A DNA stretch of 59,195 bases, filler included. It is 5 parts of 5 records of this genome, joined end to end, with 100 filler letters (N's around TTAATTAATTAA, not from the genome) between each part and the next. Parts side by side here need not be neighbours in the genome. Positions count along the whole stretch, not along the records: positions 30,029 to 37,235 come from SRR20825006_2484; 4 more parts are not named here. One strand, written 5' to 3'. Shown piece by piece: positions 29,929 to 52,718 of this stretch. The stretch's first letter is position 1. Each line of letters opens with the position of its first letter. The translations under genes were made by a program, and so were the position numbers. Below the pieces are notes generated by a model. It was given only the letters and a program-made list of their open reading frames with translations. It did no database searches and was not told the DNA's origin.

Positions 29929-30028
29929 NNNNNNNNNNNNNNNNNNNNNNNNNNNNNNNNNNNNNNNNNNNNTTAATTAATTAANNNNNNNNNNNNNNNN
30001 NNNNNNNNNNNNNNNNNNNNNNNNNNNN
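29929..30028. other. Artificial contig spacer
   Basis: N44-TTAATTAATTAA-N44 (stops in all six frames); abrupt GC-rich to AT-rich switch across it. Confidence 0.98.
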
Positions 30029-31096
30029 TGGTCCTGCTATAATTATAGAGACAGTATTATTTGCTATAGCCAAATTTATACTGCTTACTAGAGCACCAAT
30101 GCCAAGCTGAGCAGTTACTTTATTTTTTATTAAAGACTTAATCTTATCCAAAATAAACTGTATACCGCCATGTTTTGCAACTAAAGCTGCTAAACCTCCA
30201 GTAAGTAGAGAGAGTAAGAAAATTTCTGTCATACTGGTAAAACCTGTATATGCTAATGTTGTAAACTCAATAATGGTGAAATCTGCATAGGCCAAACCTA
30301 AAACTCCTGCAGCAATAACACCTAATAGCAATACTACAAATACATTTATTCCTATAATACTTAATGCTATAACTAACAGGTATGGTAATATTTTTAAAAT
30401 TGAATACTGTTGTGAGGCTTCTATTACCTCTGTTGGCTGAAATCCGAATCCTTGTATAATAAGTATAATAATGGTTGCAAATGCAGCAGGTAATGCAATT
30501 TTAATATTCTGTTTAAACTTGTCACTCATTTTACATCCTAAAGATTGTGTGGCAGCAATTGTAGTATCAGATATTACAGAAAGGTTGTCGCCAAACATTG
30601 CTCCACCAAGTAAACCACCACAAAGTATAGGTAAGGATACACCACCTTGATCTGCAATACCTACTACAATTGGGGCTAGAGCTACAATTGCACCAACAGA
30701 TGTACCTGTTGAAACAGATAAGAATGCTGCAATAATAAATACTTCAAAATAAATATATTGAATAGGAATAACATCTAAGCCTAAGCTTACTATAGCATCT
30801 ACACTTCCTGTTGCTTTGGTAACTGTTGCAAAAGCTCCCGCAAGCAAATAGATGAGGCACATTGTTAGGATTTTGTCATCTCCGCAGCCTTTAAGTAAAG
30901 TATTTATTTTAGCATTTATTGTGTCTTTAAAAAGTATAAATGCGGTTATAATACCAACAATTACTGCGATGGGAGAAGGAAGTGCATAAAAATCTCCCTG
31001 ATAAATACCTACGCCTAAAAAGGTAAATACAAATACAAATAGTGGGAGTAAAGCTTTAGAACTTGATTTTGGGGATACTAAAGGTGTTTCTGTCAT
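30029..31096 (-). CDS. NhaC-family transporter, probably MetT-like methionine transporter; 3' truncated
   Basis: GTSVGAI and GAMFGDNLSVISDTTIAAT NhaC motifs; SAM-type riboswitch upstream. Confidence 0.85.
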
Positions 31097-31178
31097 AATA
31101 TGTTTTATTACAGAATCACAAAAGATGTTAGGAAGCGCAAATGGGTATGAATTAACATTTTTTCCAATTGAATTTGGC

Positions 31179-31241
31179 TTATCTATTTTAGCACCTTGCT
31201 CGTTATTGCAGGTTGCTATCTCTCTTTGAGATTCTTGATAA
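31179..31241 (-). ncRNA. Minimal SAM-I-clan riboswitch aptamer (63 nt)
   Basis: UUAUC-AAGA-[AUCUC AAAGA GAGAU]-AGCAACC-UGC...GCA-AGGUGCU-AAAAUA-GAUAA: P1, J1/2 and P3 core match SAM-I; lies between the promoter and the NhaC gene. Confidence 0.8.
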
Positions 31242-31250
31242 TTAAGGCTT

Positions 31251-31258
31251 CAAAAGTA
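31251..31258 (-). promoter_or_regulatory. Bacteroidota -7 promoter box
   Basis: TACTTTTG (TAnnTTTG) 9 nt upstream of the riboswitch P1. Confidence 0.7.
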
Positions 31259-31335
31259 CATGATAACTCATAGAAACCATATGCTTTTAAAGTAATTTTT
31301 AAATGAATTTAAAACCGAAAATATGGTAAAATTAT

Positions 31336-31367
31336 AATGCGCTTAAGGACAAAGCCTTAAGCGCATT
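31336..31367 (-). terminator. Terminator hairpin after the DJ-1 gene
   Basis: AATGCGCTTAAGG-ACAAAG-CCTTAAGCGCATT, 13-bp perfect stem. Confidence 0.8.
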
Positions 31368-31387
31368 TTATTAGATTGTAAGTGAGC

Positions 31388-32191
31388 TTACTTAAGGGAT
31401 TCTAACAATTTTTCTGCAACTAACTCAGATGATGCTGGGTTTTGACCCGTAATAAGGTTACCGTCTTGCAATGCATAGGCACCCCAATCTTCTGTTTTAG
31501 AATACTCACCTCCGTTTTCTTTAAGCATGTCTTCAACTAAAAAAGGAACAACATCTGTAAGCTGTACAGCTTCTTCTTCTGTATTTGTAAAACCAGTTAC
31601 TTTTTTACCTTTAACTAAAGGTGTACCGTCTTGAGACTTCACATTTTTTAAAGCTGCTGGTGCGTGACATACAAAAGCTATTGGCTTATTTTGAGAATTA
31701 AACGTTTCTATTAACTTAATAGAAGTTTCATCTGTTGCTAAATCCCATAAAGGTCCATGACCACCAGGATAAAATACAGCGTCAAAATCTTCTGCATTTA
31801 CAGTAGATAGAATTTTTGTGTTAGCAATTAATTTTTGAGTCTCCTCGTCGTTATTAAAGCGTTTAGTATCTTCTGTACTTGCGCTTTCATCATCACTTTT
31901 AGGGTCTATTGGTGCTGCGCCACCTTTTGGAGTTGCAATAGTTATGTTTGCTCCTTTATCTTTTAACGTGTAATATGGATTTGCAAATTCTTCAATCCAA
32001 AATCCAGTTTTTTCTCCAGTATCTCCTAGTTGATCGTGAGATGTTAATACAAATAAAATATTCATAGTTTTTTCGTTTTGTTGTGATGCTTCTGCAAGTG
32101 TATCAGAAGCGTTTTGTTTAGATTCACTTTTACAACTTGTAGCTGTAATCACTAATGCTATTAGTGTGGTGATTTTTAAAAAATTGGTCAT
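31388..32191 (-). CDS. DJ-1/PfpI (Hsp31/glyoxalase III-like) protein with lipoprotein signal
   Basis: TGFWIEE, YPGGHGP, FVCHAP and ITGQNPAS motifs; N-terminal ITATSC lipobox. Confidence 0.9.
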   Translation of the reverse strand: MTNFLKITTLIALVITATSCKSESKQNASDTLAEASQQNEKTMNILFVLTSHDQLGDTGEKTGFWIEEFANPYYTLKDKGANITIATPKGGAAPIDPKSDDESASTEDTKRFNNDEETQKLIANTKILSTVNAEDFDAVFYPGGHGPLWDLATDETSIKLIETFNSQNKPIAFVCHAPAALKNVKSQDGTPLVKGKKVTGFTNTEEEAVQLTDVVPFLVEDMLKENGGEYSKTEDWGAYALQDGNLITGQNPASSELVAEKLLESLK

Positions 32192-32197
32192 TATATA

Positions 32198-32830
32198 TTA
32201 ATCTAGTACTGTTACTAATTGTTCTTTAGGTTTTCTAACCTTAACTTGGTTTGCCAACCAATCATTATCTTCATCTCTATATCCTAATGGTAATAATACA
32301 GCACTACGTAAACCTTTTTCTCGTAGGCCTAAAATTTTATCTACAGCATCTGGATCAAAACCTTCCATTGGCGTGGCATCTACTCCTTCGTAGGCAGCAG
32401 CTGCAACAGCAAGTCCAAATGCAATGTATGCTTGTTTAGAGGCGTGAATAAAATTTTCTTCGGCATCCTTTTGAGGATATGTATTAAGTAACATTTGTCT
32501 GTAATTCTCAAAACCTTCATTTTCGTAACCTCTTACAGAGTTTGTCATATCAAAAACTTGGTTTATACGTTCTGCAGTGTAGGTATCCCAAGCAGCAAAA
32601 ACAAGAAGGTGAGAACTGTCTGTAATAACAGATTGATCCCAAGCTACAGGTTTTATTTGTCCTTTTATATCATTGTTGGTAATCACAATTATTTCGAATG
32701 GTTGTAAACCACTAGATGTTGGAGCTAAACGTGCTGCTTCTAAAATCCTGTCGATTTTGTCTTCATCTACAGTCTTTCCGTTCATTGCTTTTGTAGCGTA
32801 TCTCCAATTTAATTTATCTAATAACTCCAT
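32198..32830 (-). CDS. Nitroreductase family NAD(P)H oxidoreductase
   Basis: WRYATK, APTSSGLQP, DATPMEGF and KVRK motifs. Confidence 0.92.
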   Translation of the reverse strand: MELLDKLNWRYATKAMNGKTVDEDKIDRILEAARLAPTSSGLQPFEIIVITNNDIKGQIKPVAWDQSVITDSSHLLVFAAWDTYTAERINQVFDMTNSVRGYENEGFENYRQMLLNTYPQKDAEENFIHASKQAYIAFGLAVAAAAYEGVDATPMEGFDPDAVDKILGLREKGLRSAVLLPLGYRDEDNDWLANQVKVRKPKEQLVTVLD

Positions 32831-37235: not shown

Positions 37236-37335
37236 NNNNNNNNNNNNNNNNNNNNNNNNNNNNNNNNNNNNNNNNNNNNTTAATTAATTAANNNNNNNNN
37301 NNNNNNNNNNNNNNNNNNNNNNNNNNNNNNNNNNN
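37236..37335. other. Artificial contig spacer
   Basis: N44-TTAATTAATTAA-N44. Confidence 0.98.
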
Positions 37336-44899: not shown

Positions 44900-44999
44900 N
44901 NNNNNNNNNNNNNNNNNNNNNNNNNNNNNNNNNNNNNNNNNNNTTAATTAATTAANNNNNNNNNNNNNNNNNNNNNNNNNNNNNNNNNNNNNNNNNNNN
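44900..44999. other. Artificial contig spacer
   Basis: N44-TTAATTAATTAA-N44. Confidence 0.98.
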
Positions 45000-52618: not shown

Positions 52619-52718
52619 NNNNNNNNNNNNNNNNNNNNNNNNNNNNNNNNNNNNNNNNNNNNTTAATTAATTAANNNNNNNNNNNNNNNNNNNNNNNNNN
52701 NNNNNNNNNNNNNNNNNN
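52619..52718. other. Artificial contig spacer
   Basis: N44-TTAATTAATTAA-N44. Confidence 0.98.

Follow-up and report, generated by a model that had tools for sequence, protein, structure and literature searches.

The riboswitch lies on a low-GC contig from a marine flavobacterium. The window, meaning the whole analyzed stretch of 59,195 nucleotides with filler included, consists of five contigs joined by N44-TTAATTAATTAA-N44 linkers (29929-30028, 37236-37335, 44900-44999, and 52619-52718). The first contig (1-29928) has a GC content of 60%, the riboswitch-bearing contig (30029-37235) has 33%, and the other three have 34-35%. The 60% GC contig has a 98% match to genome G001 and the 33-35% GC contigs have a 99% match to the flavobacterial genome G159, and cross-matches (G001 to a low-GC contig, G159 to the 60% GC contig) were not found. 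Since the two kinds of contig match different genomes, the assembly mixes two organisms. G159 is from the same species as the riboswitch contig, with 98.8% identity across 2718 bp. The best protein matches of this contig are from Lacinutrix, Zobellia, Winogradskyella, Leeuwenhoekiella, and Gelidibacter (74-78%), and the host is therefore a marine member of the Flavobacteriaceae. The comparisons were centered on genomes of this family and not on kin of the 60% GC contig.

The riboswitch is flanked by genes on its own strand, the minus strand. Downstream is a gene for an NhaC-superfamily, MetT-like transporter (31096-30029) with a match to PF03553, in agreement with the preliminary description, which had called it NhaC/MetT-type. 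The window holds its first 356 codons. The open reading frame that begins at 31096 runs into the linker at 30028, where the contig ends, so the apparent stop is an artifact. The copy in G159 (locus L091) is complete, with 441 amino acids, is 97.5% identical over 356 amino acids, and scores 82.7 bits against PF03553. The score against the NCBIfam NhaC equivalog is 89.5 bits, compared to a cutoff of 370, and the transporter is therefore an NhaC-superfamily protein of another subfamily. Upstream are a DJ-1/PfpI-family gene (31388-32191) and a nitroreductase-family gene (32198-32830). A terminator-like hairpin of 13 pairs (31367-31336) is the sole such site in 30900-31500. It follows the DJ-1/PfpI-family gene, to which it belongs, and precedes the riboswitch promoter box; the earlier observation that no intrinsic terminator stands before the ATG of the transporter thus holds.

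The RNA upstream of the transporter is a full-length SAM-I/IV aptamer by its Rfam match. When the whole window was scanned against 4227 Rfam families, one match exceeded its gathering score, that to RF01725 on the minus strand (31246-31148). It spans model positions 1-99 of 99, is not truncated, and scores 56.4 bits against a gathering cutoff of 41.1 (window-wide E = 1.2e-06); in clan competition among the SAM models RF01725 was the match retained. A Bacteroidota-type -7 promoter box, TACTTTTG (31258-31251), ends 4 nt before the match. The motif TAnnTTTG, the Bacteroidota -7 box consensus, was seen by eye just 5' of the aptamer in 17 of 17 leaders inspected. A core of 63 nt, from P1 to P1 (31241-31179), encloses J1/2, P2, P3, and J3/1. 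P1 is formed by UUAUC (31241-31237) and GAUAA (31183-31179), and J1/2 (AAGA) lies between the P1 5' strand and P2. P2 (AUCUC-AAAGA-GAGAU, 31232-31218) is a simple hairpin of 5 bp that has a loop of 5 nt and no internal loop. The P3 stem-loop, AGCAACC UGC AAUAACGA GCA AGGUGCU (31217-31190), has AAUAACGA as its loop and carries the conserved internal loop GCAACC / AAGGUGC. Inspection of the sequence between P3 and the P1 3' strand found AAAAUA alone and no helix. The distance from the 3' end of P1 to the ATG at 31096 is 82 nt. Promoter box, P1, J1/2, P2, P3, the 63-nt span, and the 82 nt are all exactly as the preliminary description gave them.

The aptamer continues past this core. The P1 3' strand GAUAA is followed by a G, a CCAA/UUGG hairpin, an A-rich linker, and a tail that contains UGUUA. 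The hairpin, CCAA-AUUCAA-UUGG (31177-31164, with CCAA at 31177-31174 and UUGG at 31167-31164), lies outside the junction and is the last helix of the model. A pseudoknot joins UAACG in the P3 loop (31205-31201) to UGUUA in the 3' tail (31157-31153). Because the 3' hairpin and the pseudoknot tail are present, the aptamer is about 99 nt long rather than 63 nt. Both elements had been missed: a 3' P5 of the SAM-I/IV type was reported as not seen and the pseudoknot partner as absent, while the hairpin aligns with the model and, like the UAACG/UGUUA pairing, covaries. Reading the core by eye suggested a minimal aptamer because these elements lie outside the part enclosed by P1.

The pairing pattern of related leaders indicates that the whole structure is conserved. 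Loci were gathered from named genomes by the relatedness of their encoded protein to the transporter of the window. A covariance model, R1, was built from 17 aptamers with nested helices only, so that the alignment was not fitted to the pseudoknot; it gives the window aptamer 108.8 bits. R1 is narrower than the Rfam model and misses most of a second SAM-I/IV subgroup described below. Its matches were aligned (27 from 43 sources, 26 of them distinct), and pairs were counted with the pseudoknot added. This model-based alignment was used in place of one made with MAFFT, in which P2, the 3' hairpin, and one tail were misregistered. Across the 26 distinct sequences, standard pairs occupy 92.3% of cells versus 82.4% in shuffles, and none of 500 shuffles attains any of five covariation measures. 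Sliding the registers by 1-3 columns leaves 30-41% paired.

Each helix contributes to this result. P1 and P2 are both 97.7% paired, with changes on both sides in three of five and four of five pairs, respectively, and P2 differs in length between genera. P3 is 99.0% paired and is near-invariant in 17 sequences. The 3' hairpin is 90.4% paired and has changes on both sides in all four pairs. In the pseudoknot, pair 76-132 is UA in 12 sequences, CG in nine, and AU in one, with two unpaired and two gapped, and pair 80-128 is AU in 13, GU in six, and GC in five, with two unpaired. Pairs 77-131, 78-130, and 79-129 are nearly invariant, and the two outer pairs are formed in a subset only (14 and 18 unpaired cells of 26). 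Five helices, including the pseudoknot, are thus conserved with compensatory changes. The letters of the SAM-I-type core (P1, J1/2 AAGA, and the P3 internal loop) match the model consensus and are invariant in 17 homologs, and the G159 copy is identical to that of the window in both aptamer and spacer. An intact SAM-I-type core in an aptamer of the SAM-I clan had been claimed from the outset, and this was correct.

The features that had been taken as signs of minimization are those that define the SAM-I/IV class. The window RNA has in common with RF01725 the SAM-I-type core, the plain P2, the lack of PK-1, the hairpin 3' of P1, and PK-2. No structural difference separates the two; what is particular to this lineage is the expression platform and, in Flavobacteriales genomes, the exclusive tie to one transporter gene. 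A crystal structure of SAM-I/IV is reportedly the subject of a 2014 paper by Trausch et al. With SAM-I, or S-box (RF00162), the RNA shares the binding core (P1, J1/2 AAGA, and the P3 internal loop) and the regulation of the same gene family, but it has no kink-turn, PK-1, or in-junction P4. With SAM-IV (RF00634) it shares the hairpin after P1 and PK-2, which pairs the P3 loop with the 3' end. In the passages of Zhang et al. 2019 (PMC6890682) drawn on here, SAM-I is characterized by a P2 kink-turn, PK-1, and a P4 within the four-way junction; PK-2 of SAM-IV connects the region of the P3 loop with the 3' end, past a hairpin; and in SAM-I/IV P2 is undivided (no P2a/P2b) and PK-1 is absent. By the same passages SAM-IV has P2a/P2b and PK-1, whereas the window RNA has a single 5-bp P2. 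An excerpt of Weinberg et al. 2010 (PMC2864571) similarly presents the 'SAM-I-IV-variant' RNAs (RF01725, 'several phyla, marine') as having features of SAM-I and SAM-IV without an internal loop in P2. Because SAM-I/IV, as these excerpts describe it, lacks the split P2 and PK-1, what looked like a stripped scaffold is the definition of the class. The short P2 and the lack of a kink-turn, PK-1, and in-junction P4 were rightly noted, but SAM-I/IV's own scaffold is present. The good full-length Rfam match removes the novelty, as the preliminary description had itself said such a match would, and the window element is an ordinary, already known member of a catalogued class in a typical gene context.

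The association of this aptamer with the transporter gene is widespread in Bacteroidota. Sixty of 80 transporter loci were scanned with Rfam and the other 20 with R1 alone. A full-length SAM-I/IV is directly upstream of the transporter in 16 of the 19 Bacteroidota loci in the Rfam scan, and the Pontibacter locus has a classical SAM-I upstream. Two Flavobacteriales loci, that of Paenimyroides (L024) and that of a Capnocytophaga MAG (L033), and one Fusobacterium locus had no Rfam riboswitch match upstream. In a set of 20 non-Bacteroidota transporter loci, Rfam gave no SAM-clan match. Twenty further loci included two Bacillota with SAM-I (L079 and L081) and Paraclostridium with a T-box (L077), so that 37 of the 40 non-Bacteroidota homologs scanned with Rfam have no such leader. 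The totals for the 60 loci are 16 SAM-I/IV, three SAM-I, and one T-box. The 20 loci searched with R1 alone added nothing beyond the 17 known matches. A RAGATH-18 RNA was found directly upstream of a transporter homolog in Tissierella simiarum, a member of the Bacillota (L052:1371-1433), with 57.2 bits against 44.9.

In three lineages, the transporter family is thus preceded by leader RNAs of presumed SAM- or methionine-sensing type. In the part of PMC3228920 drawn on here, MetT is an NhaC-family predicted methionine transporter that was first recognized in Gram-positives and is under MetJ control in Vibrio and Shewanella. The transporter of the window shares the NhaC superfamily (PF03553) with MetT, and a Vibrio homolog (L061) is 48% identical. 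Judged from sequence, the regulatory contexts of the transporter loci fit the MetT family, and the transporter is probably a methionine importer. We conclude with high confidence that the RNA is a canonical SAM-I/IV riboswitch of about 99 nt. Its promoter is of the Bacteroidota type, and in this marine flavobacterium it would control the MetT-like transporter of the NhaC family.

Genome searches extend the transporter-linked group and place it beside other SAM riboswitches. An RF01725 match is present in 23 of 121 sampled Flavobacteriaceae genomes, and in 22 of those 23 it is above the cutoff. Lacinutrix mariniflava, Zobellia barbeyronii, and Winogradskyella eximia have one match each, upstream of the transporter. 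Of 24 new RF01725 loci examined, five precede the transporter (L086, L089, L091, L096, and L097); L083 and L087 are the same records as L004 and L043, judged by coordinates and score. In all, 21 Flavobacteriales transporter-linked leaders have a common SAM-I/IV architecture, which rules out a private deletion from a longer SAM-I. Two other SAM classes are represented once each in G159, SAM-I (RF00162, 77.5 bits) and SAM-II (RF01726, 53 bits). Since this genome has a true, full-length SAM-I elsewhere, the leader of the transporter belongs to a separate, conserved class and is not a private deletion. The SAM-II (minus strand) and SAM-I (plus strand) of G159 diverge from each other about 210 nt apart (G159:C1:1343495-1343926, L113), and the same pairing occurs in Lacinutrix (G042) and Zobellia (G043). 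A search for RF00521 gave no match in any genome, and as the controls were likewise silent it is uninformative.

Other SAM-I/IV matches have different surroundings. A second, more divergent subgroup in Flavobacteriaceae genomes (L090, L093-L095, L098, L100, L101, and L103-L106) is not linked to the transporter and precedes small open reading frames of 86-132 amino acids that start 37-83 nt downstream. None of seven of these tested against Pfam and none of three tested against NCBIfam could be assigned to a family. Four pairs of the small or next open reading frames are homologous (E 1e-10 to 1e-38), and the subgroup may represent an uncharacterized small-protein operon under SAM control. G123 has four RF01725 matches, three of which are low-scoring (41.9-49.3 bits; L108-L110); a VapE-like open reading frame follows L108 and one of the phage-integrase family follows L109. 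The low-scoring matches may belong to a mobile element or may be spurious. In the GC-rich genus of the 60% GC contig, genome G023 has a SAM-I/IV match of 63.8 bits (L001:1440-1660), followed by a GC-rich stem and a T-run that by eye resemble an intrinsic terminator. Expression platforms of SAM-I/IV may differ between phyla.

The locus also occurs in marine metatranscriptomes. Fourteen runs contain 59-81% of the sampled words of 30029-31400, and in three of four runs compared, the leader, the coding region, and the upstream gene are spanned by one contig that is at least 99% alike; these data show only that the locus occurs, because the contigs give no transcript starts, ends, levels, or strand and DNA may be present. 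Four assemblies have no variant positions in 31097-31246, 12 in the coding part, and five upstream of 31246, and no insertions or deletions are listed in the contigs compared. In run X4, a contig with the transporter and leader (depth 9) ends at 31308, 50 nt upstream of the -7 box, and is followed by 22 adapter-like letters. The next contig of this run begins at 31510, with no cover of 31309-31509.

The spacer between aptamer and start codon contains elements that could pair with either. The spacer is 36-81 nt long in the 21 transporter-linked leaders. In the window, CAUUUGCGCUUC (31143-31132, minus strand) complements AAGCCAAAU, a stretch that takes in the P1 3' strand as well as the 5' half of the 3' hairpin, and is the candidate for an anti-P1 helix (helix B). 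A second element, GUGAUUCUGU (31119-31110, minus strand), can pair with J1/2-P2 (AGAAUC, 31235-31230; helix A) or with the start-codon region. The latter pairing is part of a predicted start-codon hairpin of 13 pairs (31119-31084, minus strand) that would bury the AUG (31096-31094) and codons 2-4 and has a predicted energy of -9.9 kcal/mol when folded alone. Flavobacteriales largely do without Shine-Dalgarno-based initiation. Helix A of the window (AGAAUC with GAUUCU) has an RNAduplex energy of -6.6 kcal/mol, reached by 1% of 200 shuffles, and helix B has -6.9 kcal/mol, reached by 6.5%. Helix A is reached by at most 1% of shuffles in five of the 21 leaders, including the window, and helix B by at most 5% in seven, its complements being lineage-specific. 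Counting either helix, 12 of the 21 leaders pass. By the same measure (RNAduplex, 200 shuffles), 14 of the 21 leaders show no helix A pairing beyond chance, and the same number holds for helix B. Compensatory variants of helix A occur in Cloacibacterium (L028, CAGGAAC/GUUCCUG) and Flavobacterium difficile (L011, UCACGAAU/AUUCGUGA).

Predicted folds of the leaders suggest that the spacer exchanges partners when the aptamer is formed. The leaders were folded free and locked; for the locked state the helices of the aptamer were imposed and the bases of the pseudoknot were kept unpaired. In the free folds of most leaders, the pyrimidine-rich spacer pairs with J1/2-P2, the P1 3' strand, and the 3' hairpin, and P3 survives; in the locked folds this region pairs with the start region instead. 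The U-run CUUUUG was considered as a terminator tract and rejected, and in free folds of relatives its partner is the A-rich loop and stem of P2. Locking lowers the accessibility of -15 to +12 by at least 0.05 in 14 of the 21 leaders, leaves it within 0.05 in six, including the window, and raises it in one (L010). The mean drop is 0.114, versus 0.034 when the switching part of the spacer alone is shuffled (14 shuffles per leader), in leaders that are related and not independent. In 14 of the 21, the actual spacer gives a larger drop than its shuffles do on average; this drop is reached by none of the 14 shuffles in six leaders and by one of 14 in two more.

In the leader of the window, the predicted accessibility of the start region stays at 0.38 on locking, and 11 of 14 spacer shuffles give an equal or larger drop. 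The minimum-energy fold of the full-length leader keeps the start-codon hairpin (-30.6 kcal/mol, versus -27.4 with the anti-aptamer fold forced). Because this hairpin is present whether the RNA is free or locked, no equilibrium switch is predicted for the window, and any choice would be made co-transcriptionally. The anti-aptamer fold, with the helix A pairing, is the minimum-energy structure of transcripts of 137-153 nt. It is thus favored before the 3' strand of the start-codon hairpin is made, and a kinetic switch is proposed on this basis.

The model proposed for the window is a translational OFF switch that is decided kinetically. Without SAM, 31143-31132 would pair with the P1 3' strand and the 3' hairpin, and 31119-31110 would pair with J1/2-P2. 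The aptamer would unfold, and the second element, GUGAUUCUGU, being bound to it, would be kept off the start codon. In the presence of SAM, aptamer and pseudoknot would lock, and the freed GUGAUUCUGU would fold with the AUG and codons 2-4 and block initiation. On the basis of the folding models, the chance that this describes the window leader is put at even or slightly better. A more general form is tentative and less likely to be right than wrong. It holds that the metT leader of Flavobacteriales is a kinetic translational switch in which one pyrimidine-rich element toggles between J1/2-P2 and the start codon with an anti-P1 helper, and that SAM-I/IV is kept for this transporter while the back-to-back SAM-I and SAM-II serve other genes.

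The main rival to translational control is Rho-dependent termination, whether as the main output or as a result of translational repression, and it is considered unlikely though far from negligible. SAM would expose to Rho a C-rich spacer or an untranslated mRNA. The leader has no intrinsic terminator, either in its sequence or in the aptamer-locked folds, 31163-31120 is predicted to be unpaired when the aptamer is locked, and the spacer of the window has 11 C and 5 G in 51 nt, all of which would suit Rho. The C-rich, G-poor bias that first suggested this output is not general, since C is at least twice G in only three of 21 spacers (the window, L004, and L010) and several have at least as much G as C. 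At 36-81 nt, the spacers are also short for a site at which Rho loads. Moreover, polarity could be a mere consequence of translational repression.

A switch of opposite sign is highly improbable. The A6-UGUUA tail (31163-31153) and UAACAUCUUUU (31130-31120) are complementary at 10 of 11 positions as read from the sequence, and a U-run follows. They could form a terminator-like hairpin that the pseudoknot prevents, so that SAM would turn the gene on and an exporter would be induced. This hairpin would have a 22-nt loop and a stem made almost entirely of A-U pairs, and it is absent from all predicted folds. No equivalent complement was seen by eye in the other leaders inspected, which limits it to this species, and the free folds of relatives have the U-run paired to the P2 region.

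Two readings of the aptamer itself are still less credible. One is that of the preliminary description, a new, naturally minimized 63-nt aptamer of the SAM-I clan that functions without a peripheral scaffold. The 63-nt core is as it was described and P2 is a plain 5-bp hairpin, but the next 36 nt form the SAM-I/IV 3' hairpin and pseudoknot tail and align to the full model. The changes on both sides of all four hairpin pairs and the UA/CG and AU/GC/GU exchanges in the pseudoknot also argue against it, and the plain P2 is a hallmark of SAM-I/IV in the passages cited above (PMC2864571 and PMC6890682). The other, equally improbable, is a decaying, non-functional remnant, for which nothing specific speaks and against which stand the many aptamer positions invariant in 17 sequences from many genera, the compensatory changes in every helix, the identical aptamer in G159, and the lack of variant positions in 31246-31148 as compared to 12 in the coding part (four metatranscriptome assemblies).

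The analysis mainly corrects the reading of an ordinary SAM-I/IV riboswitch as a new minimal aptamer. The conserved link between SAM-I/IV and the transporter in Flavobacteriales speaks for a substrate related to methionine in this NhaC subfamily. The expression platforms of this phylum are poorly understood, and the leaders offer a testable model of translational control. The same-species genome G159 uses three classes of SAM riboswitch. If the kinetic translational switch proposed here is true, the locus would provide a worked example of expression-platform logic and of the division of labor among three SAM riboswitch classes in one Bacteroidota genome.
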